From: a virus
Taxonomy: Duplodnaviria > Caudoviricetes
Strand: one strand, 5' to 3'
IMG/VR virus record: IMGVR_UViG_3300023235_001725
Length of the DNA stretch: 64,000 nucleotides
The translations under genes were made by a program, and so were the position numbers. Below the pieces are notes generated by a model. That model was not told the DNA's origin. It searched no databases and saw only the letters and a list, made by a program, of their open reading frames with translations. Positions 5,390 through 64,000 of this stretch are shown here, one piece after another. Position 1 is the first letter of the stretch, and each line of letters starts with the position of its first letter.

Positions 5390-5433
5390 AAGACTGATTT
5401 ATTATCAATATACGAGCCTCAGCTTAAAAAGTT

Positions 5434-5742: not shown

Positions 5743-5746
5743 ATCC

Positions 5747-8483: not shown

Positions 8484-8500
8484 AAGTCTCTACTCTGTAT

Positions 8501-8962
8501 CTATGACGGGTCGCGCACTTCCGACCAAACTTTACTATTTAACCCTCTCTTGTATGTGGTCCCAAATCTGATTGGAGACGCCATGTTTGTTAATGCGATT
8601 TGCATCACAATCTTCGTCTCTTGAAATACTCGATACATTCGGAAATAATTCTCCTTGTACCAGGCTTTGTATTCCTCTAAATCCATTTTTGAAAACTCTT
8701 CCTGGGTCTTCTCTCCCATTTCTATTGCAATATCTTGGTCCCACGGTTTATTTCCGAACGGACGCTTATCGTCTGTACAGAATATACCTTCGTAGCAAAC
8801 GTCGTAGTCTGCTCCAAATGTGATATCTATTCTTGATGCTAATTGGATGTGGTGGGGTTCGATTCTAAACTCCTGCGCATTTTCGAGCTCTGCACTAATA
8901 GAATTCTTTTGTGCGTCTAATGTTATAAGCTCGTCTTCTTTCCAAATTTCTCTAAACCACAT
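8501..8962 (-). CDS. hypothetical protein
   Basis: ORF track; KRPFGN..DIA motif; upstream CGTATATTG. Confidence 0.7.
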   Translation of the reverse strand: MWFREIWKEDELITLDAQKNSISAELENAQEFRIEPHHIQLASRIDITFGADYDVCYEGIFCTDDKRPFGNKPWDQDIAIEMGEKTQEEFSKMDLEEYKAWYKENYFRMYRVFQETKIVMQIALTNMASPIRFGTTYKRGLNSKVWSEVRDPS

Positions 8963-9014
8963 AAGGGGACATTTTTAGTGTGCCTCCAATATACGGTAGA
9001 ATTCAGAAAAGGTT

Positions 9015-10400: not shown

Positions 10401-10446
10401 TTATTACAAAGTAACAAAATTATAGTTTAAAGCAAAGATATAATAA

Positions 10447-10881
10447 TTACTTTTCTCCTGGCTCAAGGTCAGTGTGTATGTTATCGCCAATGTTGTTTTT
10501 ATTTTTAAAGACTTTGATTTTTAAATCAATGAAATTTTTTGACTTTCCTATCGCGTGTTCATTGGGACGCAAATCTTTCAAGTGACGTCGAGTCCAGATA
10601 TTAATTTCCCCATCTGGAAGGTAATAGTCTTCATAGTTGTAGTACCACAAGCCTGTTCTACTGTCGTGAAGGTATAGAGGGTGTTGTTCTCCATAAGAAT
10701 AGGCTACATACATTTGCCCAAGCTCGCCTAAATCTTCCCCATAAGTGTGTGACCCAACAAAATTCTCTTGTCTATTTATAAAATCTGCTGCTTCTTTATT
10801 TGTAATTCTTTCTTCATCAAGCTGCTCTTCATCAATGAACTGCTGCAAGGACTCGCGTATTGTTTTCAGTAACCTTTTCAT
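10447..10881 (-). CDS. hypothetical protein, putative late gene
   Basis: ORF track; CTATTTAC upstream; N-terminal LLKTIRESL helix. Confidence 0.7.
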   Translation of the reverse strand: MKRLLKTIRESLQQFIDEEQLDEERITNKEAADFINRQENFVGSHTYGEDLGELGQMYVAYSYGEQHPLYLHDSRTGLWYYNYEDYYLPDGEINIWTRRHLKDLRPNEHAIGKSKNFIDLKIKVFKNKNNIGDNIHTDLEPGEK

Positions 10882-22444: not shown

Positions 22445-23095
22445 TTATGCTCCACAGCCAAAGCAATCAAAATCGCTTTCTTCTGGTCTAGCAGGTAGGT
22501 CATCGTAATCAGCTGTTGGTTCGTCTAATTGTTCTTCTTGCGCTTTTTTTGTCACAGTAAACTGAATAGCATCTGCAGCAGGCTTTGTCCGTAAGTAATA
22601 CATTCCAGTCTTAAGTCCTTTGTTCCATCCATAGAAGTGCATTGAGGTTAATTTTTGAAAATCTGGTTCGTCAATAAACACATTCATAGACTGACTTTGA
22701 CAAATAAATGCACCTCTATCTGCTGCCATGTCAAGAATATTTTTCTGCTTAATCTCCCAAACAGTTTTGTAAACATCCTGGATATCTTCTGGAATCTCAT
22801 CGATTCCTTGGACAGAGCCTCTGTTAGCGATGATTTTATTTCTAAGATTAAAGTCCCAGATTTTCAATTCGATTAATCTTTCAACCAAGTGAGGGTTCAC
22901 CAATACAAAGTTTCCAGAAAGAACTTTACGCTCGTAAATGTTTGAAGTAAAAGGCTCAAAACATTCGTTGTTTCCTAGGATTTGTGCTGTGTTATGACTT
23001 ACGCATCCGTTCCCCATTATGTAATGCTCCTCTCCTGGTACCGCTAAATCCCATGTAGGCTTTACTTTGCTTGGTGTTATTTTTTTTACTTTCAT
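22445..23095 (-). CDS. nrdA: class I ribonucleotide reductase alpha, C-terminal fragment with a 35-aa split-intein C-half (IntC)
   Basis: MKVKK...TWDLAV...[12 protein letters not shown] then extein [34 protein letters not shown], terminal CFGCGA. Confidence 0.93.
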
Positions 23096-24360
23096 TTTAT
23101 ATTGTTTTTAAGAAGAAAGTCTTCTACTTTCTCGTTGTTTACCTCTTTAGTTGAGCTGCTCCAAAGCTCTAAATATTTATACCCTTTCTCTAAAGCTAAG
23201 TCCTTCTTTCTCTGGTCTATGTTGTGTATTTCATCTGCAGACATTTTAACTCTATTAATACCTGAGCCTTTTAATCTCCAAGATTCCCAATTTTTCCACT
23301 CCTCCTTACTTAGCCTTTCTGGGTTTGGATGATATCTTTCGCCATGATACTCAATTATGATTTTTCGCTCAGGAATAGAAAAATCATAAAACCTCATGCA
23401 AGCGGAGTATTCGTCGTAAATACCTAACTCCTTACTCTCATCTATACCCACAAGTACTTCGAGTTCGCTTGAAAACTTATCAAACAGCGGTTGAAAAAAC
23501 ACAAGACTCTCTTTAGAAGCTCTTCCGAAATGTACTTGTTTCTTTAAAAAAATCTGCTCCACTTTGTTAATCGATTCTTTCTTTGACAAGCCTTTTGATA
23601 TCCAATAATCCACTGAAGAGGTGTTTAAATTTTCTGTATGAAACTTTTTTCTCATCTCTTCCGCATCCTCCTTGCTATATCCTTTATTAATCCAGTGTTT
23701 AGAAGTGAATACGCTTGTTTCTTTTTTTGCATCAACGTACTTATCCCACATATCTTTACCTTTATCTTCTCCGTGCTGTTGAATATACTTTTCTTTCGTG
23801 TGCTTTGAAGAATCTTGAAACTCTTTAAACAAGCTCAACCCTTTCTTTTCTCCATGTCTTTCTATAAAACCTTTCTCAGACGTTGCTTTGGAAGATTTGA
23901 AATTATCAATCTCAACCAGTGCTTCTTTCTCTGAAAAGCCCTTCTCAACCCAGTACTCCACTTTATAAGGAGTAACCCTGCTGCTGTAGGCATTTTCTTT
24001 TTTAATATTACCTAGCTCTAAACCCCATTTTAAATGGTAAAACTTATCTGAGTTAGAATCTGTCTTATTGGTTAATCTATACTTTACATATTTTTTAAAC
24101 CTTTCTCCATCAAAACTCTCAGACAACTCTTTTATGTTATCCCTTACTTTATGGCCAGGCATTTCTTTGCTTTGAATTACTTCAAAAGCAGAAATAAAGT
24201 GACTCACATCTAAGGACTCATGCATTTTAATTAATGCATACCCTGCCTTGATGTTGTCAAATATTAATTTGTCCATTTCAATGTTTGAGTTTCTTCTGAA
24301 AAAATCAGATACCCCCTTTAAAGTTCTTATCTCTGTATTATTAATTTTAAACCTATCCAT
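23092..24360 (-). mobile_element. free-standing Vsr/DUF559-like homing endonuclease between the nrdA halves
   Basis: C-terminal FYDFSIPERKIIIEYHGERYHPNP; repeated (Y)W..KG.S.EEA and HGE.KG DNA-binding-type repeats; ATGA overlap with nrdA-C. Confidence 0.85.
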
Positions 24361-24390
24361 TCTGTGCTATTTATTAATAAATAGCACAGA
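24361..24390 (-). promoter_or_regulatory. 30-bp perfect palindrome containing the putative late-promoter motif and abutting the endonuclease ATG
   Basis: TCTGTGCTATTTATT|AATAAATAGCACAGA then ATG on the minus strand. Confidence 0.8.
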
Positions 24391-24417
24391 ACTTTAGGCT
24401 GTCATGCCAGACGCAAC

Positions 24418-26634
24418 TTAGTTTTCAATTAGTTCTTCACATTTAATAGTTAGAATATCATCGTCTTCTTTTAACTCATTTACATAAACCCACTCATCTC
24501 CTGTAGTTCGACTCACAAGAAATCTATGATTTCCCGTAGCCTCCATTGTAGACCCATCTTCCATTTCTATATGGTAGACCTGCTTATGCCCATTGTAGTA
24601 CATCTTATCAGTTTCAACCTCTCCATTCATCGTGTCAACAATAACTGACTCTTTAAGAGTAATCCAATGTGGAGCATCAACCGACTCAATAGTTTTCCAA
24701 TCAATTCCACTTTGTTCTAAAATAGATTTGAAATTATTCACTTTTCCTTGGCTAAAGAACTCAGTGTCAATTACTTGACAACTTGCTGTAGGCATTGGAG
24801 CCAACAGCAGAGAGTTTCTAGCTCCAAACTCTTTCACTTTGTCCTTTAGACCATTCCAGTCCAAATTTAGATTCGGTGAGAGCTGAGACTCTTCCCAGTA
24901 ATCAAACTGGAAAATGCCTTTGCTTAGGTCTGAGCCTGGGAACGTTTCATATGCTCCATCTTTCATAGCTTCCTCCATAGAGGCCTCCATAGAAGCGAAG
25001 TAAATCATTTCGAAGATTTCCCTATTAAGTTGCTTTGCTACCTCCGAATCGAATGCCACGTGCATCTTAGCGAACACATCGGCTAAACCTTGAACACCAA
25101 TGCCAATTGGTCTGTGACGTAGGTTTGATTTCTTAGCCTCCACAACTGGGTAGAAATTTCGGTCGATAACCTTGTTAAGGTTTTTTGTGACCACCTTTGT
25201 AACCTCATATAGCTTATCAAAATCAAACTCGTACACTTTCTTGCTTGGGGTCTTAGCTGTGTTTGTTTGCTTCAAATACATTGGCAACGCAATAGATGCA
25301 AGATTACAAACAGCTACTTCATCTGGAGAAGTGTACTCCATAATTTCTGTACAGAGATTAGAGGACTTGATTGTTCCCAAGTGCTTTTGATTAGATTTAT
25401 GGTTAGCGGCATCCTTGTAAAGCATGTATGGAGTTCCTGTTTCAATTTGAGATTCAAGAATCTTGAACCAAATGTCTTGAGCAGGGATTGTCTCACGCCC
25501 TTTGCCTTGCCTCTCATATTTGGTGTACAACTTCTCAAAGTCATCTCCATAGCAGTCTGAAAGCCCAGGGCACTCGTTAGGGTCCATTAAAGTCCAGCTT
25601 GCGCCTTCATCAACTCGTTTCATAAACAAGTCTGGAATCCACATCGCGTAAAACAAATCTCTCGCACGCATCTCTTCTTTTCCTGTGTTCTTTTTCAAAT
25701 TAAGAAACTCGCGTATGTCTGCATGCCAAGGCTCTAAGTAGATTGCAAAAGAACCTTTTCGTTTTCCTCCACCCTGGTCAACATAACGAGCTGTGTCGTT
25801 AAAGTTTCTAAGCATTGGAACAATTCCATTAGAGGTTCCGTTGGTTCCTTTAATATAAGAGCCTTTGGCTCTTATGTTGTGAATGCTCAACCCTATCCCT
25901 CCAGCTGATTGTGAAATCAATGCACACTGCTTTAAAGTGTCATATATTCCATCAATAGAATCATCTTTCATCGTTAACAGGAAACAGGAAGACATTTGCG
26001 GTTTTGGAGTCCCTGCATTAAACAATGTAGGTGTTGCATGAGTAAAATACTTCATGGATAATAAATCATAAGTCTCTATAGCTTTGTCAATATCATCCAT
26101 GTGAATACCTACTGCAACGCGCATAAAAAGATGTTGAGGCCTTTCTGCTGGTGTTCCATGAGTCTTAAGAAGATACGAGCGTTTCATTGTCATGAATCCA
26201 AAATAGTCAAGCTGAAAATCTCGGTCTTGAATGATTGCCCCATTAAGTCTTGCACTGTTTTTTTTCACCACCGCATAGGCTTCCTCGCTAATAAGCGGTG
26301 CTGGTGCTTTTGTGATTGGGTCGACATACTCGTAGAGGTCTTTTATTGTCTGAGAAAACAATTTCTTTGTTTCCTTGTGAAGTGAAGTAATGGCTATTCT
26401 GGCTGCCAACTTTGAGTAATCTGGATGTGTTGTAACAAGAACGGCTGCCTTCTGAGCTGCTAATTCATCTAATTGCGTTGTTGATACACCGTCGAATATT
26501 CCTTGAATAACTTTTTGGGCTACTTCTGAATAATTAACTGCCTCCGATAAATCATAGCATTGCTTTTTAATTCTAGCAGCTATCTTATCAAACCTAACTT
26601 CTTCCTTAGAGCCGTTGCGTTTAGTAACTTGCAT
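24418..26634 (-). CDS. nrdA: class I ribonucleotide reductase alpha, N-terminal fragment ending in a 120-aa split-intein N-half (IntN, 24780-24418)
   Basis: ATP cone [41 protein letters not shown] then intein CQVIDT...[10 protein letters not shown]. Confidence 0.95.
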
Positions 26635-50669: not shown

Positions 50670-50697
50670 CTTTAAATTAAAAAATAGTTTGCCGTTT

Positions 50698-51924
50698 ATG
50701 GAGAGCAATATTAACATAGAACTTCTTAAATCACTCACGGAAAAACTTAATCGACGCGACAAAGATATTCTTGATTCAGAAAAAATGTTTAGAGGTTTTT
50801 TTGAAAACTCTTCAGCTGGAATGTGTATAGCAAATGTTGAAGATGAAATGTTTATTAAAGTTAATTCTGTTTTTTGCAAGTGGTTAGGATACTCTGAAGA
50901 GGAATTGCTATCATCTCCTATATTGTCTTTTATTTCTCCGAACAGTGTTGATAAAACTAAAGCTGTTTTGACTAAGCTAAAAAAAGGTATTGAGAGTGTT
51001 ATTGAAGGATTTGTGAATGAATATCTCCATAAGGATGGTCATAGCGTTTGGTTAAAATGGAATTCTTCAATTCCTGATAATAATGGGATTAATTACAGCG
51101 TTTGTGCGAACATAACAACAGAAATTCAACAAGCTATAAAAATTAGTAAACAAGATAAAATTTACAAAGTTTTAACTGAAAGTAGTCACGAAGCTATTTG
51201 CTTGCATGACACCAAAGGAAATTATATATACGTTTCTCCTTCTTACGAAAAGCTTTTTGGATACAGTCAAAGTGACATGGTTGAAAAAAATGCTTATGAT
51301 TTTGTGTTGCCTGAAGATGTTGAAAGAATAAAAAAAGAATCACACAAACCTTTGATGAAAAATAAAGATTTTCAAATTGCAAGGTTTCGACTTCGACATA
51401 AAAAAGGGTATTATGTGTGGGTAGAGTCTTGTTCGAAGCCGATACTTGAAAATGGAGAAATTACTGAAATAAGGACTAGCACTAAGGTGATTACAGAAGT
51501 TATAAAATCTGAAAAAGAAGCTTTTATAAACAGGGAAATATATGAGAAAATTCTTCATAACACTCGTGAACTTGTGAAAGTGTATAAAATAAACGATGGC
51601 CCTCCGTCTTTGGTTTACATATCTCCCTCTTGTTTAGAATATACTGGATATGCTCCTGAAGAGCATGTAAAACAAAGTTTATCAGAATTGATTCATCCAG
51701 AAGATGAAGAAAAAACAATGAAAAAAATGTTAAGTGTTTTGAATACAAAAAAAACACTTATTGTAAAGTACAGAGGGAAGCATAAAACAAAAGGTTATAA
51801 GCTAGCAAGCAGCATAGTAAGTCCAATATTGAATGAAGAGGGAGAAGTGAGCTATATTGTTTTGTCTAGCAAGGTAATCCAAGAGTTAAATAACGATAAA
51901 CATAACAGTGAAGATGTCGGATAA
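50698..51924 (+). CDS. triple-PAS-domain protein with no output domain
   Basis: Three PAS-like repeats (VNSVFCKWLGYSEEEL; VSPSYEKLFGYS...VLPED; ISPSCLEYTGYAPEE...IHPED) with PAC motifs HKDG..VW and HKKG..VW. Confidence 0.88.
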   Translation: MESNINIELLKSLTEKLNRRDKDILDSEKMFRGFFENSSAGMCIANVEDEMFIKVNSVFCKWLGYSEEELLSSPILSFISPNSVDKTKAVLTKLKKGIESVIEGFVNEYLHKDGHSVWLKWNSSIPDNNGINYSVCANITTEIQQAIKISKQDKIYKVLTESSHEAICLHDTKGNYIYVSPSYEKLFGYSQSDMVEKNAYDFVLPEDVERIKKESHKPLMKNKDFQIARFRLRHKKGYYVWVESCSKPILENGEITEIRTSTKVITEVIKSEKEAFINREIYEKILHNTRELVKVYKINDGPPSLVYISPSCLEYTGYAPEEHVKQSLSELIHPEDEEKTMKKMLSVLNTKKTLIVKYRGKHKTKGYKLASSIVSPILNEEGEVSYIVLSSKVIQELNNDKHNSEDVG

Positions 51925-52395: not shown

Positions 52396-53118
52396 TTAGC
52401 AACCAGGGCCGCTCTTTGCTTTGAGTGGAAATGAGAGGAATGCTAAAAAGTTTGGCTCAACGGTAATGAATAAGTTTTTCCACCAGTATCCGTATCCGAA
52501 TTTCTCTTTCATTATTTCTCCCACAACTTTCCTAGCTTTTTTAGGTACTATTACAGTCTTTACAGAAGTGCCCTCAATTATGTGTGCAGCTCTTTTTCGG
52601 CCTTTTATTCTTTCAATGTAATTCATCTTCTCCCACCATTGTATTAGCGTTTGAGATTGGGTTCTGCTAATTTCTAATTCATTGGAAATAAGCGTTACAG
52701 ACATGCTCACAAATTCTCCCTTAATTTCAGTACGATTTTCTTTATTCACTTCATTGAAGCGGTTGCTAATCTCGTTCTTAAGGCTAGAGTGGACGTGATG
52801 TATCTGTCTTGCTTTGTACTCAACTAATTTTAGAAGCAGCAGCTTCTTCATTTCAGACACAGTGGTGATATTTCTACCTTGTGTATCTATCGTGCATCGA
52901 TGTTTAACTATGAGCCCGTTAATTGGCTTTTCTACTTTGTTATGAGAGACCATTTGGAGGTTGCCGTGGTGAAATTTAGCAAGACCCCATTTAATCATCG
53001 TTGGAACACATCTCCTAAGGATTGAAACGGATATACCAAGCTTTTCCGAAGCAGACCTCCAGGAAAAATTATAAATTACAGGGGATTTTTTGAATCGCCC
53101 TCGAATTAGGTAATACAA
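52396..53118 (-). CDS. basic, putative HTH DNA-binding protein (start uncertain)
   Basis: WRSASEKLGISVSILRRCV and SVTLISNELEISRTQSQTLI are HTH-like. Confidence 0.55.
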   Translation of the reverse strand: MYYLIRGRFKKSPVIYNFSWRSASEKLGISVSILRRCVPTMIKWGLAKFHHGNLQMVSHNKVEKPINGLIVKHRCTIDTQGRNITTVSEMKKLLLLKLVEYKARQIHHVHSSLKNEISNRFNEVNKENRTEIKGEFVSMSVTLISNELEISRTQSQTLIQWWEKMNYIERIKGRKRAAHIIEGTSVKTVIVPKKARKVVGEIMKEKFGYGYWWKNLFITVEPNFLAFLSFPLKAKSGPGC

Positions 53119-53197
53119 AGCCAGAGCGTCTAAAGCATTCCTGTAATGGAAATGACCTATAACGCCTTCATTTGTCTTGATATAATATCTCGTTTTC

Positions 53198-53560
53198 CTA
53201 ATTGTCGTAAAATTGAGAGTTGTCCTCTTGTTGTTTTATATGTGGGCACACGACGATGGTCTGTTGTAAAACATTTAACACCCTCATCATAGCTCCTAAA
53301 TCGTACATCTTATATTCTCGACAAAGCTTATGAAAATCATTTTCACAAACGTATCTAAATGTTGGTTGTCCGTCGATTTCAAGTCGAAGAGGAAAATAAT
53401 CCCATCCGTCTTGCATCATGCTGTTTTTGTACAATAACGTGCCATTGGCTCGCATTCGCCGAGTTGTCCCTATTGATGCGATTATACCGCCTGATTCTTT
53501 TGATTCCTCCAAGTTATTCAAGAGGTGTTTGTCAAACCAATAATGTTTCTTCATATGCAT
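53198..53560 (-). CDS. hypothetical protein
   Basis: ORF track. Confidence 0.6.
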   Translation of the reverse strand: MHMKKHYWFDKHLLNNLEESKESGGIIASIGTTRRMRANGTLLYKNSMMQDGWDYFPLRLEIDGQPTFRYVCENDFHKLCREYKMYDLGAMMRVLNVLQQTIVVCPHIKQQEDNSQFYDN

Positions 53561-54623
53561 GCATTACTGTTGTTAATTTAACTCTTCCGTTAAAGTTTAA
53601 AAATCCTTTTTCGTTTCGTTTGAATTTGCCTACGTATACAGCTTGTTTCTGTAGCTGAGGAAGAAGTTTTTCACTAATTGGAGAAAATATATTGAACTTT
53701 ACAGTGTCAATACCATCGCTTCCATGTATAGAGATAAAGTCTTTTCCTTTTTTAGTTTTCTTAAATAAGATATCATTGATAATAAACCAGTAAAAACCTT
53801 CTTCAGCATAATGTGGTAGTGGAAGAATAGCTTCTTTCGACTTGTCACTCATTTCCCCCATTCGGGTGTGAATAATTGAAACTCGATTAATTTCTTCCAT
53901 ATCAAAACCACATACTCCCATAAATTCATCTTGCTTTTCAATATCGGAAGTTGCTGCGTATTTTAAATGGTCTATTCTATGAGTGTACTCGATATCATCC
54001 ATGTCGAACATTGCAAACTGCGAAGCGTCTTTAGGTTTTTTCTTCCTGTTTTTATCTCTTAGAAACATTAAATATTCTCTAGAAGTGCTCCAGTCATCAA
54101 ACATTCCCGCTTGTAAACAAGAACGAAAAGAAGTCTTGTTGAATTTAGTGAAGGGTATATCAAAAAAAGCAGCCATAGATATTTCGCTAAATTTCTTCCC
54201 TTTTATTGCTAAATTATCTTTCAACTCTTTATAAGCAATATCTCCCATCCCAGTCATGCTAGAGAAACCCATTGTGATTTCGTTGGGGCCAGTCATCGAC
54301 CATCTCCATATTGAGAATCTAGTCGGAGGTTTTATAGTGATTCCTCTAGATATTGCAGCGGTGATTGTCTGAGTCAGCCATTGTTTTTCTTTCTCCTTTC
54401 CAGCGTTTGAAGACTTTTGCTCGTTCAATAGCGCTGTATAAAAGTATACTGGGTAGTAATGCTTTAAGTATAAAGTTTGCATAGCGATGTATGCGTATGA
54501 AACCGAGTGACTATTTGAAACACAGATATCATTTGCATAGAAGTTGTGATGTTCATTATCGATTTCTAAATCGTAAGTATCTACCACTCCTATTTCTTCA
54601 ACTTCTATAATAGATTCAAACAT
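53532..54623 (-). CDS. dnaE: DNA polymerase III alpha, C-terminal fragment preceded by a 37-aa IntC-2
   Basis: MFESII...TYDLEID..HNFYANDICVSN then SHSVSYAYIAMQTLYLKHYYP; HhH-like GFSSMTGMG; OB-like C-terminus. Confidence 0.92.
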   Translation of the reverse strand: MFESIIEVEEIGVVDTYDLEIDNEHHNFYANDICVSNSHSVSYAYIAMQTLYLKHYYPVYFYTALLNEQKSSNAGKEKEKQWLTQTITAAISRGITIKPPTRFSIWRWSMTGPNEITMGFSSMTGMGDIAYKELKDNLAIKGKKFSEISMAAFFDIPFTKFNKTSFRSCLQAGMFDDWSTSREYLMFLRDKNRKKKPKDASQFAMFDMDDIEYTHRIDHLKYAATSDIEKQDEFMGVCGFDMEEINRVSIIHTRMGEMSDKSKEAILPLPHYAEEGFYWFIINDILFKKTKKGKDFISIHGSDGIDTVKFNIFSPISEKLLPQLQKQAVYVGKFKRNEKGFLNFNGRVKLTTVMHAYEETLLV

Positions 54624-55594
54624 TTTATTTTGTTTTTTATAATTGACTCGTTATTAATTATATCATTCTCCCACAATTCTATAAGCTGAAAACTCCCGTC
54701 ACTTTCAACTGCATGCCTTTTTTTTATATCTCTTTTCTTGTTCTTTATTTGAACATCATGAGTACACCCGCTATGTCTTGTATTTTGATTACTATGAAAA
54801 AAATCTCCCTGTACTTCTATTAAAATGCTTCCTATTCTAAAGTCAAAAGAATAACCATAACAAGAAAACTCTTCTTCCCATGTACCTTTGAATTCTTTAG
54901 CGTGATTTGATTCAGAATAAGTATCTTTTCCAAATCGTTCACTTAGCATTCTCTTTACCTCAAGATGAGGTTTTGATTGACCATGAGAATAGACACCACT
55001 TTTGTATCTAGCTATCGTTATATCTCTAAGGCGCTGTTTAGTTTCTTCTGAATGTTTAAATCCAGTATGACCATGTATTTCTCTTTTTTTAGCACTCTCT
55101 GACATGCGCTCAAGTGTTTCATTGCTGAATTCAACGCCTTTTCTGCGCTCAGAAAGCTTTTTCATGACTTCATTATTATCTTTAGTTTTTCCTTTGTTCC
55201 AAGCTTTTATACCGTACATAGGGTTTCCTTTTCCTTTGCGTTCTTCCTTCATTCTTTCGACGTGAAGTTTATATTCTTTATTATTTTCCGCCACGTACTT
55301 AGCAGTTTCTGTTGTAGTACAATTATTCGAAAATTTACCGAAAACAATAGAGCCTTGAAGTTTGTAACTAGGCTTATCTCCTGTAATCGGACACAAAGGA
55401 GTTGTAATGGATTCTGGAAGCAAATCTACCAAACTCTTCCCATAAACACTTTTGTGATAATAATTTGATATCTCAGAATTGTAGTAGTTGTTGTTTTGTC
55501 TAATTAAAACTAATGACAACTTTGCCCTCCATTTTTTCATATCAATATCTTCGCCATTCACTATATCCTTTTTGAAATCGATTTTTACTTTCAT
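54605..55594 (-). mobile_element. NUMOD3-repeat, Vsr-like homing endonuclease inside dnaE split site 2
   Basis: KGNPMYG..AWNKG, HSEETKQRLR repeats; FDFRIGSILIEVQGDFFHSN...IELWEND. Confidence 0.85.
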
Positions 55595-55627
55595 AATATA
55601 TAGTATATAGACTGAGATTTGTTAAAA

Positions 55628-57250
55628 CTAGTTTATTTTTACAGAAAGCTTTTGTTCAATAATATCTTTCAGAGGTAACATACCTTGTTCAGTCATTATT
55701 TTATGGTCCAAAGTGCATTCTAAAATTTTCCCACTACTTGTCTTAATTCGATAAACTTTCTTTTTACCGTTGTTATGACGAGCTTTCACTGGAACCCATT
55801 CATTTTTTTTCGTGTCTGGATTATAACCTAAAATCATATCTCCTGGCCTAGTTTTTAAAAGAGATATTTTTCCCTTTTCCTTTTCTGTGACTTCACAGTT
55901 TTCAGATAAACATTTGTTAAACGAATACCCTAGATAATCAGAAAGGTATAAAAGGATTTTATCAACCTCTTCTTTCGGAACACCATTTTCCTCTGCTCCA
56001 GATACAAACTTACTCCAATACTCTTCGTAAGCTTTATAGTTCTTACTTTCCTTTTCGTCCTGAGTGAGTTCTTCTCCTTGGTTTGTTTTTTTTATAAGCT
56101 TCGCAGCTTTATCAAGTGCACGACGCAAGTTATCACCCTCTCCTAAATCCATTCCCGCTATCTCTTTTGCGATAAATTGAATTTGCTCCTGAAACACCAG
56201 TACACCGTTAGTTTTTTCTAATATTGGCTTTATCAAATCAGATGGAAATTCAATCTGTCCTGGGAACCTCTTGTTATCAACGTATTGACGGTGGGCTCCA
56301 ATTCCCATTGGGCCTGGTCGATAAAGAGCATTACAAGCAGCCATTTCTTCAAAGTTCTCAACGTTGAGTCCTCGAATCAAAGCGTTCATGCCTGGCGATT
56401 CAAATTGGAATATACCGTGGTTCTGACCAAGCATTAACTCCTTGTAAAGGTTTTGGTCATCAAACTGCTCATCAATATTCATTATTGTATCGAACAAATC
56501 AATCTTTTCACCATCCTTAACCATCTTGATACAATCCATGATGATATTAATTGTTGACACTTTCAAACGGTCAAGCTTCAATATCCCAAGATAACTCAAG
56601 TCTTTTCCAGAGCGGTCCCCCTCTTGATATGCTGATACAATTGATTTATTAGAGACAATCATATTTGTTGGGAGGTAGTCCCAAGAAGGCCCAGGAGTAA
56701 TAACAACTCCAGCGGCGTGTTTACCAAAACCTCTCACTTGACCCTGAAGAGCCAGTGTTTGTTCTATAATTACTTTGTTGGATGAATCAGTAAGCCATCT
56801 TTGTACGAGTGGACTGCAATCATCTGACTGAGCATGGTTTTCTAACCACCAAGCCAAGTTGTATTCGACTTTGTCGAACTTCGGCATCTCTTTAGTGATT
56901 TGAGCTACATCCGATTCAGTTCCTGTTGCTTCTGGCCCACGGTGTGCACGAACAACGTCCTTCAAACATCCTCTTTCATTCCATTTAGAAAAAGTACCAA
57001 CACTCATTACTCGTTCTCTACCATATTTTTTGTAAAGGAAGTCATCAGTTTCATGGTCTGTTCCTGTTTGAAAATCAATATCTAAATCGGGAGGGCTATT
57101 GTGTATGATTATCAGTGAGTTACACTCTTTATTTAAAGCTTTACTAGAAGTAGATTTGACCATAAAATATGGGTCCCCTTCAAAAGATAAGTCATAAACT
57201 GGCCCGTCGTACTGTATCTTGCGTATTGACTTTATGCTGACTGTCTTCAT
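55628..57250 (-). CDS. dnaE: DNA polymerase III alpha, middle catalytic fragment flanked by a 51-aa IntC-1 and a 94-aa IntN-2
   Basis: MKTVSIK...VYDLSF...IIHN then SPPDLDIDF, GKHAAGVVI, KLDRL, GIFQFES, LYRPGPM, VFQEQ, YSFNK then CLSEN...CTLDHKI; start ATG at 57250 overlaps the endonuclease TGA. Confidence 0.93.
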   Translation of the reverse strand: MKTVSIKSIRKIQYDGPVYDLSFEGDPYFMVKSTSSKALNKECNSLIIIHNSPPDLDIDFQTGTDHETDDFLYKKYGRERVMSVGTFSKWNERGCLKDVVRAHRGPEATGTESDVAQITKEMPKFDKVEYNLAWWLENHAQSDDCSPLVQRWLTDSSNKVIIEQTLALQGQVRGFGKHAAGVVITPGPSWDYLPTNMIVSNKSIVSAYQEGDRSGKDLSYLGILKLDRLKVSTINIIMDCIKMVKDGEKIDLFDTIMNIDEQFDDQNLYKELMLGQNHGIFQFESPGMNALIRGLNVENFEEMAACNALYRPGPMGIGAHRQYVDNKRFPGQIEFPSDLIKPILEKTNGVLVFQEQIQFIAKEIAGMDLGEGDNLRRALDKAAKLIKKTNQGEELTQDEKESKNYKAYEEYWSKFVSGAEENGVPKEEVDKILLYLSDYLGYSFNKCLSENCEVTEKEKGKISLLKTRPGDMILGYNPDTKKNEWVPVKARHNNGKKKVYRIKTSSGKILECTLDHKIMTEQGMLPLKDIIEQKLSVKIN

Positions 57251-58311
57251 TGAATTGCTTTTTTTAAGGTAGCTTTTACTTCTTCTCTGTTTTTGTCCCA
57301 ATCATGTTCCCATATGATAAAAACACGATATCCTGTTATCTTTTTAATTTGCTTAATTCTCTGTTCGTCAATCTCCCAAAGTTGTCCTGCTGTTTTCTTT
57401 TTATGAGGATGAAAGTAATCTGCTTTAAACTTTAATGGATTACAGTGCCAATAGTCTCCATAAAATTCTACTATAATACGGTTTTTAGGATTATAAAAAT
57501 CTACATGATATGCTTTTTTGTTTTCAACATCAGCAACTATAATTTGTTGATTTTCACTTTCATCATAAAAACTCGAATCAATAAGCTTTAAATCAGAAAC
57601 AAGGTATTCAACGAGTTTTTGCTCTTTTTTAGAACTCCCACTTCCAAAGTTGACTTGGATTTCATGTTGCACATTATCACTGTGGAATATATTCTCAACT
57701 CCATATTTTTCCATCATTGTTTCAGTCACAGCACTATAATGACTTCCTCTGTTTAAAAACCAAGGCACCCCGTATTTGTCTTGAATGGATTTAGATATCT
57801 TATCTCTAACTTCTTGTATTTGTACTGGAGAAGTTAACCCTGTTGTTCCATAAGTTTCATTTAATCCTTTTTGATATTTTTCTCTATAACCTTTTGTTCG
57901 ATAGTATATTTTTTTGTAATCACCGTGCTTCATATAAAACCCATGCTCCCAAAAAAACTTTCCCCCTCTAGAAGGATGGAGTTTGTGACGTATTTTTTTG
58001 TTATAAATTTTTGTAAAATATTCAACTTGACTCCCAGTTAAAGGGTAGTTTTTAGTATCCACCTCCAATCTCATCTGCGTCTTACCACGGTCAATGATGT
58101 AATGAAAACCAGTGATGACACCAGTTTTTTTATTATCTCTAATTAACATAGCTCCAATAATGCAAGAAGGAGAAACAGCTAAACCACACTTATATGGCCA
58201 CTCTTTGATTTCTTTTTTTGTTGGAACAGCATGAATAAGAGAAGTCTCACGAAGTCTTTGGTCGAGTTCCGCTTTTGTAATATCTTCTATGCTTAATAAT
58301 AAATCTATCAT
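57247..58311 (-). mobile_element. Vsr-like homing endonuclease inside dnaE split site 1
   Basis: KYGV repeats; VDFYNPKNRIIVEFYGDYWHCNP...IIWEHDW; ATGA overlaps at both ends. Confidence 0.85.
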
Positions 58312-58640
58312 TTTAGAAAGTCTTTATCTATAGATAGGCTCGGATTTTTAAACTCCAGTTCATACAGCCCCCAAAGCGCTTCTGCAATCTCATTTCCTCT
58401 TTCATCAATATTGTCAAACCACCCCTTCTCATTAGAGGGTATTTTGTGGGTATCTCTCGCGTTAATTCTTCCAATATCATGAGAGCCTTTATTGGAAGAC
58501 ATTGACATTATAATGTGGTCTAAGAATATTCTCACCTGCTTATCCCATTCTGTTGGTTTTTGCCAAGCTGGAATTATAAGTTTAGAACCTTCTTGACACA
58601 TACCTTTAAAATTAATATCTCTACTTCCTTGTACTATCAT
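58308..58640 (-). CDS. hypothetical protein inserted within the split-intein locus
   Basis: 110-aa ORF with ATGA overlaps to both dnaE-N and the endonuclease. Confidence 0.65.
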   Translation of the reverse strand: MIVQGSRDINFKGMCQEGSKLIIPAWQKPTEWDKQVRIFLDHIIMSMSSNKGSHDIGRINARDTHKIPSNEKGWFDNIDERGNEIAEALWGLYELEFKNPSLSIDKDFLK

Positions 58641-60826
58641 AATTTTCGTATTAACATTTTATCTGTCTCTAATAACTCATCCACGCGAATATCAACACGC
58701 TCTCCTTTGCGCATCACAGGTACAATGTGATTCCCCGTCAATTTTACAATGATGGAATCTTCAGTTTCAATCTCAAACACCTCATCAGCTGGTGTGATAT
58801 CTCGCTTATGCACTTGAACCAAAACGCCGTTGCCTGATTCTGTTTCAACTGGGTCCCCAGGAACAATATCTCCGATAGGTTTCAGTGAGCCATCTTTCAT
58901 CAACACCAGCCCATCTTCAGTAACGCAATTACGTGCTGGATTCAAAAAACGCTCAAAATACAGCCCGAATTGAATAGGGTCAATCTTAGTGATGTCAAGA
59001 CACCATGCTAATAAAGAACCAGCTGCAGAGCCTCTTCCACTTCCAATTTCAAAACCTCTTTTCTTATAATCTCGAATAATTTCCCAGTTTACAAGGAAGT
59101 AGTCAAGCATCTTCTTGTCCTTAATTACTTTTAACTCGTAATGGAGTCTATTTGTGTACTCATCTACAACCTCTTGTGTTTGTTGTAATTTTCCTTTGGT
59201 AAACTTACGTCCGAGCTTTTGCTTGAGTTTCGCAAAAGCCATCTTTGTGATAATGGTTTCCGTGTCCTCTGCTCCTGCCCAATCTATAATGTCTTTCGTT
59301 GGTTCGTAACGAGGGTATTTTTCAACCCCTACTTCAAATTCAAAATTGCAACGCTCAGCCAGCTTCAAAGTGTTATCCATGAATATCTGTAGAATGTTGT
59401 GCGGGTAATTGTATCCAAATTTTGAATTCAGAACATAGTAGTCTTTTCTCGACAAATAATACAGATTTCTTCGTTCCTCTAAACGACACTTATCCATCCC
59501 TATTTGTTGTTTTATAGCGGAAACAGTGTCTTGCAAAGACGCTTCTTTTTGCTTAACATAATGAACATCATTATCTAAAATCACCATTGCCTTCGTGGCG
59601 GATGCCATTTTTAAAACAAAGTTGTTAAATCGCTTTTGCTCACCAATCTCTGAAAACTTAATTTCTGCGATATAATCTGGGCCAAATGCTTTTTGTAATC
59701 GTTCCCAATATTTAGAAGCTGCCGTCTTTTGTCCTTTAAAAAACAAACTTGCGAGATATCCTTGGTAGTTTCCAGTGGTAACAATCAAACCTTCTTTGTT
59801 CTCAATTAACCAATCAGTGTGAATACGAGAATACATCCCATCAAAACCTTCTGAATGAGATTTAAATATCAGCTTATTAAGGTTTACAAAACCCACTTGG
59901 TTTTTAACAATGATTTTTATTGGGTATCCACCTTTTTCTGACTCTTCGGAGCCAACAGTATCGTTGAGATAGATTTCAATTCCAAATATTGGCTTGATTC
60001 CGTATTTTTCAGCTTTCTGTGACAACTCTAGACTGCCTGACATGGTTTCGACATCAATAACAGCGAGAGATGTGTGCCCTAGTTCTTTAGCACGCTTAAG
60101 ATAATTATCAATACTACCTGAGCCACGAAGCAAGCTATAGTGAGTGTGACAAGAGAAATGAACTAACGGCTTAGCTTCCTCTTCTGGGGATACCGATACG
60201 TGGGCAACACTCTCAGAAGAAAACCCATTAGAGGAATCGGAAGGAAGTTCTTTAAATCCGAAAATGCCAAGCCGTTGAAGTTCAAAAAAACATTTAGCGG
60301 TTGCTTGCACATCGAAAAATGCGTTGTGAGCACCTAAAAAGTCTTTCCCAAAAAGCTTATTATGGAGCTCAATAAGTTTTGGAAATTTATAACCCCGACG
60401 ACCCCTTAATTTACAAAAGTCAATTGTAAGCTTCATCGTGTCAACGGGAAATATTGAAGCTAGATTGTGACTCATCGATGCTCGATGAAATTCACACCCC
60501 ATAATTCCAAGGTCAAAATTGATATTATGTGCTATGAGGTAATAGTTACGCTCTAGAGCAATTTTAAACTGATTTAAGGCATCAAGCATAGAAATTCCTT
60601 CTGCGTGCGCCTTTTCGTTTGATATGCCGTGTATTTGAACGACTTCGTGAGGAATGTTGTATCCTTCAGGTTTAATTATAAGGTCGTGCCTGGATATTTC
60701 GCTGCCGTCTTGTGCATATTCAACCCAGGCTAACTGTACTAGTCGAGGCCAGTTATCTGCATCTGTCCAAGGTGCGTTAAACCGTTTTGGCCTGCCAGTA
60801 GTCTCTGTATCGAAGACTATATACAT
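58637..60826 (-). CDS. dnaE: DNA polymerase III alpha, N-terminal fragment (DEDDh exonuclease, PHP, start of palm) ending in a 96-aa IntN-1
   Basis: FDTETTG, AHNINFD, AHNAFFD; HFSCHTHYSLL; GSGRGSAAGS; FERFLNPARN then CVTEDG...LTGNHIV. Confidence 0.94.
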   Translation of the reverse strand: MYIVFDTETTGRPKRFNAPWTDADNWPRLVQLAWVEYAQDGSEISRHDLIIKPEGYNIPHEVVQIHGISNEKAHAEGISMLDALNQFKIALERNYYLIAHNINFDLGIMGCEFHRASMSHNLASIFPVDTMKLTIDFCKLRGRRGYKFPKLIELHNKLFGKDFLGAHNAFFDVQATAKCFFELQRLGIFGFKELPSDSSNGFSSESVAHVSVSPEEEAKPLVHFSCHTHYSLLRGSGSIDNYLKRAKELGHTSLAVIDVETMSGSLELSQKAEKYGIKPIFGIEIYLNDTVGSEESEKGGYPIKIIVKNQVGFVNLNKLIFKSHSEGFDGMYSRIHTDWLIENKEGLIVTTGNYQGYLASLFFKGQKTAASKYWERLQKAFGPDYIAEIKFSEIGEQKRFNNFVLKMASATKAMVILDNDVHYVKQKEASLQDTVSAIKQQIGMDKCRLEERRNLYYLSRKDYYVLNSKFGYNYPHNILQIFMDNTLKLAERCNFEFEVGVEKYPRYEPTKDIIDWAGAEDTETIITKMAFAKLKQKLGRKFTKGKLQQTQEVVDEYTNRLHYELKVIKDKKMLDYFLVNWEIIRDYKKRGFEIGSGRGSAAGSLLAWCLDITKIDPIQFGLYFERFLNPARNCVTEDGLVLMKDGSLKPIGDIVPGDPVETESGNGVLVQVHKRDITPADEVFEIETEDSIIVKLTGNHIVPVMRKGERVDIRVDELLETDKMLIRKL

Positions 60827-60852
60827 GTTGTTGAATTAGTGTGTTGCCGAAG

Positions 60853-60860
60853 CAAATATA
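60853..60860 (-). promoter_or_regulatory. Bacteroidota-type -7 promoter box TATATTTG upstream of dnaE-N
   Basis: Exact TAnnTTTG match; TTG about 21 nt upstream. A similar TACTTTTG lies near 17872-17879. Confidence 0.6.
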
Positions 60861-61062
60861 ATTCAATTTTAAGTTATAATCCAACTTTAGTTTAAAACTA
60901 ATTCATTGAATCTATGAGGATTGAAGGGTTAATTATACTAATTAACAGCTGTTTAGCCTGTCGTGAGACTACTTAAATTTATTGTTGGATAGCCGTTGTA
61001 ATCCCAGTTTGGAGCTCGTGTTGTCATTCATCAACATAATCATACCGACGTTGATTGACAAG

Positions 61063-61317
61063 TTATTCGTAATCTGAGTCGTAGTCTTGTCGTTGCTTCA
61101 GAATGTCTCTAGATAAATCTTTTAAAGCAGCATGTATACGCCGAAGGCGGGAACGACTTCTCGTTCCCGCCGATTTCGTTTTTCGGTAGCTGTAAAATTT
61201 AGTTACATCAGTGGAATAAAGGTCCTCTAGTTCCTCTATAATCTTCGCTAGTTTACGCTTTACACTGTACGTGTCATTAACATTTGAGTGTTCATCAAAC
61301 TTACTCTTCCTCGTCAT
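61063..61317 (-). CDS. Hc1/histone-like small basic protein
   Basis: KTKSAGTRSRSRLRRIHAALKDL resembles the GNKAAGTRARK..L family motif. Confidence 0.6.
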   Translation of the reverse strand: MTRKSKFDEHSNVNDTYSVKRKLAKIIEELEDLYSTDVTKFYSYRKTKSAGTRSRSRLRRIHAALKDLSRDILKQRQDYDSDYE

Positions 61318-64000
61318 AGTCTTCTTCAATTATTTCCATATCAGAATTTTGCCCAGTTTCAGATATTATTTGGTCAATCTCATCCATTATATCTCTAGCT
61401 TTTCTTGCTAAATCATTACTGGTAGAGACAAGAGGGTTTCCTTGAACTCTTTCTTTTATTACTCCTTTTGGTATAATGTAATTTTCAATATTTTTCTCAG
61501 ATTCTTTTAAATTTCCCTTTATCTCACTAATCATTTTATCAGTCTGACTGATAAATTCTTCGTTTGATTTAAACAAAACGTTTTTTTCTCTGTCTTTCTT
61601 TTCTTCCTCGCTTTCTTCCGTAAATACTTCTTCATCGGTTTCCTCAAGCTCTTTAAGCAAGTCATCAATTGCACTATCAACACGCTTGTTGTGACCTTCC
61701 CAAATGCGTTCTCTTTTAGTTTCTGATATAGGCTCGCTATCACTTACTGGAGGCGCTCCTCCTGCATCGCCTCCAACTTCATCTCCACCTCCCATATCAA
61801 GGTCTCCAGATGGGTCTCCAGCCAGCGAGTCTCCTCCTCCGCCAAAGCCTCCGCCGCCGCCGCCGCCGTCATCTCCCATTAAATCTTCGTTCTCAGCGTT
61901 TTGGAGTGCTTCTGCTGCTCCTGGGATTTCAAATTTATCATCCAAATCTTTGAACAATCCAATCTTTTTGTATGTCTGCGGAGCAAATTCAATCTCCGTA
62001 AACAGTTTCCTTTCAACTTTTTTCTGACGAAGCATTTTCTTGATATCCTTTTCAGAAAATCCAAGAATGTATTTCATACCCCAAGTGTAAGAAGCAGGTG
62101 AGTAGATATCTTGTGACACAAACAATGTAAATACTTCAAGTCGAGATTTCATCGTCTCTAGCTTCAACAGCTCTTGTTGAGTAGAAGGGTTTGTGAGTTT
62201 TAAATCAAAATCATTAATCTCGTCTTCATGCCCAAGAAACGCTAAGTGAATTTTACCAATTCGACGAAGTTCCATTAGAACTTGCTCCTGGATTCTATTA
62301 ATGGTCCTAGCAAATCTTAAATCTGCTTGAGACAGTGTTGGCCCCCCAGGTAAATTCTCAGCATAATTCAAATAAGTTTTTGGAACCTTTAACGCCGCGA
62401 ATAGTTTATTTTCTAAATATTCAATATCTTGAATGTCACCTAGATTGCTATTTTGTGTAAAAACTCCGACAGAAAGTGCAAAATTATGGTGGTCATGTAG
62501 TTCATGATTTCCATCTACAGTTATTGTGCCTGTGTCTTGAGGTGTTTCTAGCCACTCAATCGATGCCACTTTATGATTAAATAATTCGGCTTTTTTCGTG
62601 AAATCTCTCCAGTTAGAATACCCAAATGACTTCATCATCTTCACTAAGTTATTGTGGGTGAAAGATGACATTTTCTTCAATTGCTTGTTCCCTTTGTTTA
62701 TGTTGTTAAATTCAGACATAAACCCAGAATTAGAGACATTAATGTCTCGTAGAATGTTGGTGGCACTCATGCCGTCTTGAAAACGAGAGACCACAAACTC
62801 CAACATTACATCGTTGTAATTTATTTCTTGTTTTTCTTGAATGGCTTCACGCAGAGAACCATCGGCCCATTGTTTAGAAGCGGCAATAGATGATTTTAGA
62901 CGAGAAGAAGATGTTTTTCTTGCTTTACGATATCCAGCTATTCGTTTCTTTTCAAAATCAGCTTTAAAATCTTCATCTTGCAGTAGCTCTTGAATTCGTT
63001 CTGTTGCTTTTTCTAAGTTGATTCGTGCTACTACTCTTTTAGATTCTAATTCTTTCTCAGAGATATTATCCCAATACTTATTTCTACCTTCTTTACGCTC
63101 TTTTTTATAAGAAGCATACATAGATTGATGAAGCATAACATGGTCATGGAAATTCATTAATTTTAAATTCTCTGGAGAATTATTGTATCGGTCAAAATCA
63201 TAATGATGAATCACGTTTTTGTTTTCCACATTTTTTTGATAAACATGTTCCTTGTGCAAATTGCGCTCATACATGTAATTATGAACCATACGATGTGTAT
63301 ACTCCCAGGATTTGCTTTGGTGGTCCCACACTTGTTCATATGTTTTAGCTTTAGGTTTGTTTTTGAAAATCTTCTGAAACCTCTTCTCAAAACTCCACAT
63401 AGAATCTCCTTCTTCAAGATTTTGTGCTTCTTGTATACCTTTAAAACGAGTAGGGAACTTGTGGTCAGGTGTAACAATAACAGACTCTCCGTTGTCAAAA
63501 GTCAATTTCATTACTTTAGCGTCTTTACGAGTAACTCCAGCCCATGTAATTTTTCCTGGAACTATTACTCCAGTTTCTGGATTTATACTGTAAGTCCAAA
63601 GCTGTTTTCCTTCATCACGCTCTTTAATGATTTCCTGAAGCTCAAGGCTTCGACCATCAAGAAGGTTGATTTTAGTATCTAGAGCCAAACAAGCTCCAGG
63701 AAGTGTGTCAATTTTTGTGCTCTTGTCACCACGAACTGGAATAAAATAATCTTCCGAGATATTCATTGGGTCATAACGATAACTCATATTGCCGTCGTTC
63801 TGATTCACAATAGGCTGTTTTTTAACTTGCTTTTGGATACGCTGCATGTATTGCTTAACATCAGCATCCTCCAAGTTGCCTACCTCAATGTAGAATATTC
63901 TACGCTCTGGAGCTCTTGTGATTCTATAGACCAACATTGAGTCCTCAGCGAGCTGTAGTTGCTTCCAAAGTTTTCTAGCAGGGTCTAAGATAGAGTTGTG
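61301..64000 (-). CDS. T4 gp20-like portal protein with intein (5' end beyond window)
   Basis: Frame open to the window edge: ILDPARKLWKQLQLAEDSMLVYRITRAPERRIFYIEVGN, EDYFIPVRG, DIEYLENKLFAALKVP, DLRFARTI. Confidence 0.92.
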   Translation of the reverse strand, partial: HNSILDPARKLWKQLQLAEDSMLVYRITRAPERRIFYIEVGNLEDADVKQYMQRIQKQVKKQPIVNQNDGNMSYRYDPMNISEDYFIPVRGDKSTKIDTLPGACLALDTKINLLDGRSLELQEIIKERDEGKQLWTYSINPETGVIVPGKITWAGVTRKDAKVMKLTFDNGESVIVTPDHKFPTRFKGIQEAQNLEEGDSMWSFEKRFQKIFKNKPKAKTYEQVWDHQSKSWEYTHRMVHNYMYERNLHKEHVYQKNVENKNVIHHYDFDRYNNSPENLKLMNFHDHVMLHQSMYASYKKERKEGRNKYWDNISEKELESKRVVARINLEKATERIQELLQDEDFKADFEKKRIAGYRKARKTSSSRLKSSIAASKQWADGSLREAIQEKQEINYNDVMLEFVVSRFQDGMSATNILRDINVSNSGFMSEFNNINKGNKQLKKMSSFTHNNLVKMMKSFGYSNWRDFTKKAELFNHKVASIEWLETPQDTGTITVDGNHELHDHHNFALSVGVFTQNSNLGDIQDIEYLENKLFAALKVPKTYLNYAENLPGGPTLSQADLRFARTINRIQEQVLMELRRIGKIHLAFLGHEDEINDFDLKLTNPSTQQELLKLETMKSRLEVFTLFVSQDIYSPASYTWGMKYILGFSEKDIKKMLRQKKVERKLFTEIEFAPQTYKKIGLFKDLDDKFEIPGAAEALQNAENEDLMGDDGGGGGGGFGGGGDSLAGDPSGDLDMGGGDEVGGDAGGAPPVSDSEPISETKRERIWEGHNKRVDSAIDDLLKELEETDEEVFTEESEEEKKDREKNVLFKSNEEFISQTDKMISEIKGNLKESEKNIENYIIPKGVIKERVQGNPLVSTSNDLARKARDIMDEIDQIISETGQNSDMEIIEEDYDEEE
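62450..63691 (-). mobile_element. contiguous intein (414 aa) with an HNH-type endonuclease in the portal
   Basis: LPGA|CLALDT...VTPDHKF...HRMV...VIHHYDFDRYNNSPENL...TITVDG..HNFAL..GVFTQN|SNLGDI. Confidence 0.9.

Follow-up and report, generated by a model that had tools for sequence, protein, structure and literature searches.

A phage dnaE gene in three pieces, with the halves of two putative split inteins at its breaks

The three polymerase genes and their junctions

The window analysed here is a 64,000-nucleotide (nt) stretch of IMG/VR virus record IMGVR_UViG_3300023235_001725, and our subject is its dnaE gene for the alpha subunit of DNA polymerase III (Pol III), which occupies positions 53532-60826 as three collinear open reading frames (ORFs) with real stop codons, termed here the N, middle and C genes. 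Within this interval only the minus strand codes, with six ORFs arranged almost without gaps (Table 1). The source is a large, uncultured phage that comes from a salt lake and has a portal and baseplate of T4 type; records for clusters that include the window's own proteins name contigs as long as 446,956 base pairs (bp), and the phage is probably very large.

The N gene (58637-60826, 729 amino acids (aa)) consists of a 633-aa extein and a 96-aa N-terminal intein half (IntN1), with the end reading ...FLNPARN/CVTEDG... (a slash marks the junction) ahead of a TGA stop. The middle gene opens with a 51-aa C-terminal intein half (IntC1; ...IIIHN/SPPDLDIDF), continues with a 395-aa extein (...YSFNK/CLSENC...) and closes with a 94-aa N-terminal half of a second intein (IntN2) and a TAG stop at 55628-55630. 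The C gene (53532-54623) begins with the 37-aa IntC2 (ICVSN/SHSVSY) and carries a 326-aa extein. When the four intein halves are taken out, a 1,354-aa DnaQ-exonuclease/PHP/Pol III alpha protein results, in which ...FLNPARN-SPPDLDIDF... and ...YSFNK-SHSVSY... are restored. The start of the middle gene is most likely the ATG at 57250, which shares an ATGA overlap with the stop of the preceding gene HEG1, rather than an upstream TTG; in the TTG-numbered ORF the last extein residue is K463.

Along the Pfam DNA_pol3_alpha profile the N gene covers positions 15-99 and the middle gene 99-259, contiguous exactly across the first split (site 1), and alignments of the middle gene with other DnaE proteins (tblastn, PDB) start at S69 and finish at 463-466, at the extein end K463; with Taq the middle extein aligns from residue 460 (2.7e-41; PDB search). 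Site 1 (RN/SPPDLDIDF) maps to residue 398 of E. coli DnaE, three residues ahead of the catalytic aspartates, and its insert in the window measures 1,830 nt; in the relatives P0032 and P0034 the site is uninterrupted (RFLNPTRN-SPPDID). The second split (site 2, YSFNK/SHS) falls within the FNKSH finger motif. It is uninterrupted in locus L001, whose proteins are 86% identical to those of the window, with 15 aa on each side identical to the window, where the insert is exactly 1,400 bp. The profile contiguity and the uninterrupted sites in relatives bear out the original prediction that removal of the intein halves restores RN-SPPDLDIDF and FNK-SHS.

No fragment is a complete polymerase: N contains the GS motif and the proofreading domains, the middle piece the catalytic aspartates, and C a clamp-binding-like motif. 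The motif coordinates agree with the earlier placement of the GS motif in the N fragment and of the catalytic DIDF in the middle one. Because three ATGA overlaps, one 33-nt spacer and one 19-nt overlap tie the six ORFs together, their packing suggests that they form one operon.

At least 24 salt-lake metagenome runs carry the stretch. Four salt-lake runs not flagged as the source have contigs that span every junction with 0 indels and no letter changes at the stops; assembly error had been named as a concern, and these contigs agree with one another and contain no contiguous frame. The three collinear ORFs with real stops are thus confirmed by the ORFs themselves, by the junction residues and by the contigs of other runs. 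A search of 53000-61300 against Rfam at lax thresholds gave no match to an intron or other RNA family. One contig of run X20 contains a 3,222-nt 'skip' joint (56330 to 59553), which we discounted because the match on one flank is just 21 nt long and the depth does not resemble that found elsewhere; we take it as another organism or a short conserved word.

Table 1. Features of the dnaE locus, listed in the direction of transcription; HEG, homing-endonuclease gene
Feature	Position	Strand	Length	Properties
N-extein of dnaE	58928..60826	-	633 aa	DEDDh DnaQ-like exonuclease aa 3-180 (RNase_T 8.5e-13); PHP aa 223-387 (2.8e-30); first part of Pol III alpha palm (DNA_pol3_alpha profile 15-99)
GSGRGSAAGS motif	59015-59044	-		In N-extein
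IntN1	58640..58927, TGA stop 58637-58639	-	96 aa	Cys1; block B TGNH; Hint 1.9e-4; net charge -8
ORF110, orphan	58308..58640	-	110 codons	Gap 1; ATGA overlaps with IntN1 (upstream) and HEG1 (downstream)
HEG1, free-standing homing endonuclease	57247..58311	-	354 aa	DUF7487-type middle region; C-terminal Vsr-like catalytic domain
Gap of HEG1-deleted allele	57364..58374	.	1,011 bp	Most of HEG1 and the tail of ORF110; both intein 1 halves kept
IntC1	57098..57250	-	51 aa	Block F VYDLSF; block G IIIHN; +1 Ser; net charge +2
Middle extein	55913..57097	-	395 aa	Palm remainder, thumb, fingers to YSFNK; DNA_pol3_finger 6.9e-40
Catalytic PDLDIDF	57071-57091	-		In middle extein
IntN2	55631..55912, TAG stop 55628-55630	-	94 aa	Cys1; block B TLDH; Intein_splicing 3.5e-7; net charge +7
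Spacer	55595..55627	-	33 nt	AT-rich; between IntN2 stop and HEG2 start
HEG2, free-standing homing endonuclease	54605..55594	-	329 aa	NUMOD3-type DNA-binding modules; Vsr/I-Bth0305I-like catalytic domain
IntC2	54513..54623	-	37 aa	Block G ICVSN; +1 Ser; net charge -10; 19-nt overlap with HEG2 end
C-extein	53535..54512, stop 53532-53534	-	326 aa	Finger end from SHSVSY; helix-hairpin-helix region (HHH_6, weak)
Clamp-binding-like QFAMF motif	54006-54020	-		In C-extein

Split inteins and the genes between their halves

In canonically split class-1 inteins the halves, about 90-105 aa (IntN) and about 33-54 aa (IntC) long, together make one HINT fold, and both pairs of halves in the window (96/51 aa and 94/37 aa) are divided at the canonical point, that of endonuclease insertion. 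Cys1, the TxxH motif, the terminal Asn and the +1 Ser are kept for both inteins in the five loci compared. IntN1 is conserved in L001, L002, L005 and L006, and IntN2 matches the Npu DnaE IntN in the PDB (4lx3, 1e-5). The HN/S end of IntC1 is invariant in all 22 three-piece relatives, and Cys1 and TxxH of IntN2 are likewise present in 22/22; the CVSN/SH end of IntC2 is kept in L002, L004 and L006 and in a contiguous intein of L005. The claim that two different split inteins flank the three pieces holds at the computational level, with complete catalytic residues that are conserved in relatives.

The L005 element is a contiguous 137-aa mini-intein at site 2, homologous to intein 2, that ends in CVSN/SHS and aligns as IntN2 plus a short linker plus IntC2. 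Because it sits in an otherwise uninterrupted polymerase gene, it must splice in cis if that polymerase is to function.

Selection on the halves was gauged by the ratio of nonsynonymous to synonymous substitution rates (dN/dS), computed for the window against L001. The values, which are rough with dS near saturation, were 0.11 for IntN1, 0.21 for IntC1 and 0.03-0.04 for the exteins, and by this measure the intein halves are under purifying selection. The predicted complex of IntN1 with IntC1 (pair 1 only) scored 0.80, with 0.02 for the best control, and three runs gave 227-235 confident contacts with at least 94% agreement and a partner predicted local distance difference test (pLDDT) value of at least 75. 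The mark applied in such predictions is reached by 51 of 78 solved complexes and by 2 of 108 mismatched pairs. This supports, without proving, the binding of IntN1 and IntC1 to each other.

The two inteins share 22-24% identity, and their charge polarity is opposite, at -8/+2 for pair 1 versus +7/-10 for pair 2, with most relatives alike. In the middle piece both halves, IntC1 and IntN2, are basic, and because of this the self-cyclisation of an IntC-extein-IntN polypeptide would be disfavoured.

Each gap holds a predicted free-standing homing endonuclease. HEG1, for which 53 homologues were found, gave weak matches to DUF559 (0.002) and MTES_1575 (0.003) over aa 220-354 and matched a PHROG homing endonuclease (2e-10); the top PDB fold match of its model (mean pLDDT 80.2) is Vsr 1cw0, with 1vsr and 3r3p also among the matches. 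For HEG2 (43 homologues; model pLDDT 82.7) the top folds are 3r3p (I-Bth0305I, template-modelling (TM) score 0.72-0.76), 1cw0, 3hrl and 1vsr. No significant PDB match to HEG1 or HEG2 came from sequence or profile searches, whereas the fold search gave these matches, with weak E-values (1.9e-3 to 0.16), as whole multi-domain models were the queries. The C-terminal catalytic domains of the two proteins are homologous (hhalign probability 98%) and their N-terminal parts differ. Invariant residues with Vsr-like spacing, D251, H267 and D289 in HEG2 and D271 and H289 in HEG1, are the predicted catalytic residues. The original prediction of a Vsr-like endonuclease in each split is thus upheld for both by the fold matches; what it had missed is that gap 1 holds an additional gene, ORF110.

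ORF110 has no relatives in Pfam, PHROG or the atlas, where its model is of low confidence, and it does not resemble the ORF that L001 has in this position. Elsewhere its slot holds an unrelated 130-aa ORF (L001), a 521-aa HATPase_c_3 ORF (L005) or nothing (L002), and from these sequences the slot in gap 1 looks like a cargo hot-spot inside a split intein. In gap 2, the 33-nt spacer before HEG2 has no significant hairpin fold (z = 0.49).

A second gene of this phage, nrdA for the large subunit of ribonucleotide reductase, is also fractured (window 22445-26634, minus strand). Its N part (24418-26634) ends in PTAS/C and carries a 120-aa IntN (24421-24780), the gap holds a 422-aa ORF (23092-24360) with a Vsr-like motif at the C-terminus, and the C part (22445-23095) begins with a 35-aa IntC ending in SHN/TAQILGNNE. 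With nrdA and dnaE both fractured, the phage would therefore need at least three split-intein pairs at once. An intein is also present in the T4-type portal gene directly upstream of dnaE (61301-63937, minus strand, running past the window end), where it is large and contiguous (approximately aa 92-478); the portal genes of L001 and L005 give two intein matches each, those of L001 with a faint HNH, and that of L002 gives one faint match.

Occupancy of the insertion sites in relatives

Relatives were sought by searching the middle piece against a large protein collection and sorting the best 120 clusters by their ends; a length filter left out unfractured full-length genes, and the occupancy counts are of families with complete ends. 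The layout of the window, with an IntC at site 1 and a split IntN at site 2, occurs in 22 of the best 120 clusters. A further insertion point, site 0 (GRG/SAAGS), lies in the GS motif 34 residues upstream of site 1, and an IntC at site 0 is combined with a split IntN at site 2 in 8 clusters. Site 2 is empty in 21 clusters with an IntC at site 1 and in another 21 with an IntC at site 0, it holds a contiguous mini-intein in 11 clusters with an IntC at site 0 or 1, and in 5 clusters a split IntN at site 2 follows contiguous N and middle parts. At least 30 of the best 120 clusters thus have a middle piece between two split-intein halves, and the rarity that had been implied for a three-piece polymerase does not stand.

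The proposed search for other doubly split DnaE genes found them in many of these clusters and in individual loci. L002/L003 (58% protein identity to the window, from two samples) and L006 (a 396-kilobase (kb) contig) have the order N, endonuclease, middle, endonuclease, C. In L006 (3718-10660) sites 1 and 2 hold split inteins and site 0 a contiguous one. L004 is in three pieces in the same order by way of sites 0 and 2 (4364-10672), with a TnsA-like/DUF7487 endonuclease at site 0. L001 has the N gene, endonuclease and IntC1 as in the window and site 2 empty. A megablast of the region against GenBank phages gave no match, nor did a degenerate-pattern scan of IMG/VR using the middle piece.

There is likeness between the halves of intein 0 and those of intein 1 (z = 7.6-8.3), which may mean that the intein element moved 34 codons between sites 0 and 1. 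In a quick-search tree of 92 middle exteins, taken from the best 120 clusters only, the state of site 2 changes 35 times, against a mean of 36.3 when states are shuffled, and well-supported branches force at least 17 changes.

The endonuclease genes are variable as well. HEG1 of the window is 47% identical to that of L001, while the exteins are 87-90% identical. In run X19 a 32.7-kb contig (depth 9.4) joins 57363 to 58375 and is the dominant form; shorter HEG1-containing contigs are also present there at lower depth, and the HEG1-deleted allele is found in X20 too.

At site 2 the occupied window (54495-54512) and the empty L001 (9339-9356) encode the same SHSVSY, with both Ser codons switched between the AGY and TCN families. 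In this single comparison, the switch downstream of the site could reflect target-site immunity or co-conversion.

Origin, assembly and known counterparts

The locus is very probably a doubly fractured phage dnaE gene whose three pieces are rejoined by two split inteins, and the footprint of selfish mobile elements that are tolerated. According to this reading, two unrelated class-1 inteins would have settled at two conserved polymerase sites, and a free-standing Vsr-like homing-endonuclease gene would have cut each of them in two at the point where inteins usually take up an endonuclease. The acidic IntN1 would pair with the slightly basic IntC1 and the basic IntN2 with the acidic IntC2; each pair would fold to an active intein and trans-splice, such that two reactions would yield one 1,354-aa polymerase. 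Low identity (22-24%) and opposite charge polarity would prevent both N-to-C skipping and cyclisation of the middle piece. The phage would tolerate the arrangement as a selfish-element footprint, and not maintain it as a regulatory device. From the conserved motifs, the dN/dS values and the predicted complex we infer that trans-splicing joins the pieces, and we regard the elements as mobile and repeatedly gained and lost because of the site occupancy, the tree, the divergence of HEG1 and the HEG1-deleted allele.

Several points weigh against this reading. Splicing, its efficiency and its order are all deduced here, and the 'sequential' reactions of the original prediction go beyond the data, which give no order for the two. 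The penultimate residue of intein 2 is Ser, with His expected; the Ser is probably tolerated, as the relatives and the contiguous homologue have it too. The near-saturation of dS makes the dN/dS values rough. The IntN1/IntC1 score was possibly raised by likeness to solved split inteins, and the complex prediction covers pair 1, not pair 2 or the cross-pairs. In L004 the charges are -8 for IntN2 and -1 for IntC2, so the charge pattern is not universal. Lastly, the tree is a quick one of the best 120 clusters only, with full-length unfractured genes outside it.

It is unlikely that the two inteins are instead a co-adapted orthogonal pair of opposite charges, in which the two basic halves would keep the middle piece from cyclising and whose splicing gates replicase assembly by the conditions of the infected cell; were this true, the phage would, with the third split intein in nrdA, be a natural multi-intein, post-translationally assembled replication system. 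The related proposal that the double split was kept as useful, as a conditional assembly checkpoint gating replication through redox, salt or fragment stoichiometry, we consider quite unlikely. Inteins do cluster in replication proteins and some are reportedly stress-responsive (PMC4760082, PMC6195587), both dnaE split inteins use a redox-sensitive Cys1, runs of 2017-2019 show the arrangement persisting in the lake, and the charge-inverted pairs look tuned. In close relatives, however, site 2 may be empty, split or occupied by a contiguous intein, and either site 0 or site 1 is used; on the extein tree these states are distributed as though randomly. A homing endonuclease in each gap is enough to explain spread and persistence, and the endonucleases are evolving fast and being lost. 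Facultative, scattered occupancy with a coexisting HEG1-deleted allele is the signature of a selfish element, and the checkpoint role suggested earlier is not supported.

Assembly of the three chains without covalent joining, with the intein halves as docking domains and the polymerase as a three-chain complex, is very unlikely. Splicing-free genes in pieces are known, with intein-less cases in T4-like phages and, for example, NrdA of Aeromonas phage Aeh1 (PMC3045599); intein 2 is without a penultimate His, and splicing here is inferred from sequence and a model. Docking alone, however, would need none of Cys1, TxxH, the terminal Asn and the +1 Ser, all of which are kept in the five loci, with HN/S of IntC1 and Cys1/TxxH of IntN2 invariant in the 22 relatives. 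The contiguous homologue of intein 2 in L005 must, by its context, splice in cis, and a retained intein of about 150 aa would hardly fit at site 1, three residues from the catalytic aspartates. The chance that the split is not biological is negligible, whether as an artefact of assembly or sequencing, as a dead gene in a genome undergoing decay or as an intron at the RNA level whose removal restores the frame: although the window comes from a metagenome and is known from DNA only, contigs from several runs match base for base at all junctions, the layout recurs in divergent relatives from other samples, the inserts are in-frame intein halves with full motifs, the extein dN/dS of 0.03-0.04 speaks against an artefact or dead gene, and the absence of an Rfam intron match speaks against RNA-level joining.

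The reading as two tolerated, trans-splicing elements can be set beside several known systems. The cyanobacterial DnaE intein sits at ...EY/CFNKSH with Cys at +1, and its halves are encoded at distant loci, without an endonuclease gene and with one split only. The split DnaE of Ssp and Npu shares with the window a natural split class-1 intein, Pol III alpha as the host protein and the same finger motif; it is a different allele, with its site four residues upstream of site 2 (YSFNK/SHS) and Cys at +1, versus Ser here. The metagenomic split inteins gp41-1, NrdJ-1 and IMPDH-1 have Cys1, Ser at +1 and similar half lengths in common with the present ones and differ in host protein and site, and the inteins here are known from sequence alone; gp41-1 reportedly combines a basic IntN with an acidic IntC, the polarity of intein 2.

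The dnaE layout seen here matches the fractured genes described by Dassa et al. 2009 (PMC2677866), which are the closest known system. In the sections of that report on which we draw, three DnaE loci are described with three different insertion points, which differ from the cyanobacterial site, and with Vsr-like endonucleases; a partial locus, DnaE-1, has the layout of the middle piece here and is a hint of double fracture. Shared with those genes, as described there, are the collinear ORFs of a host replication gene on one strand, whose conserved sequence returns once the insert is taken out, with the N part joined to an IntN and the C part to an IntC, the free-standing Vsr-like (or GIY-YIG) homing-endonuclease gene between the parts and the metagenomic, phage-like source. 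The differences are that here both fractures are complete in one gene, with all six ORFs, whereas the loci in those sections are truncated reads, and that the three-piece consequence is not discussed in them. They also describe, ahead of the endonuclease ORF, a spacer of 27-51 nt that contains a conserved RNA hairpin and a motif resembling a late promoter. Here gap 1 has instead an orphan ORF with ATGA overlaps and no spacer, and no hairpin is detectable before HEG2; the spacer with its hairpin is accessory to the definition and does not form its core.

The fold matches tie HEG1 and HEG2 to I-Bth0305I (Taylor et al. 2011, PMC3239194), with 3r3p, 1cw0 and 1vsr among the top folds of both. I-Bth0305I lies in a group I intron in recA, whereas HEG1 and HEG2 are free-standing inside split inteins and carry other N-terminal DNA-binding parts (DUF7487 or NUMOD3-type). 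Engineered three-segment ligation (PMC7090010, PMC12707363) likewise uses a middle segment with the IntC of one pair and the IntN of another, and it needs two pairs that do not cross-react; there the mix is man-made, whereas here the pairs co-occur naturally in one gene.

The dnaE locus is a complete, doubly fractured example of the known fractured-gene layout, one that is common in this phage clade. Its novelty is modest: this kind of element has been described since 2009, with double fracture hinted at then. A literature search covering part of the journals found no described natural protein needing two trans-splicing events, the one precedent being the remark on DnaE-1 by Dassa et al., and the locus would be a natural case of a protein that needs two different such reactions, the scheme that engineers build artificially. 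Two pairs coexisting in one cell and in one polypeptide are candidate naturally orthogonal split inteins; judging from their sequences the co-resident pairs are probably orthogonal, and the many relatives provide a large panel of variants. The three insertion sites in one gene, with empty, contiguous and split alleles, present fractured genes as a dynamic population process, with endonuclease loss caught within one lake population. What makes the locus chiefly valuable is that it is a natural source of co-resident intein pairs and shows the turnover of inteins and endonucleases clearly.

On the opposite strand (50689-51924, plus), in the interval that separates the polymerase genes from those of the baseplate, lies the gene for a 411-aa protein of three PAS domains. 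L001 encodes a PAS protein at the equivalent place and L004 a holin-PAS protein, and this phage clade seems to have kept a sensor-type protein.

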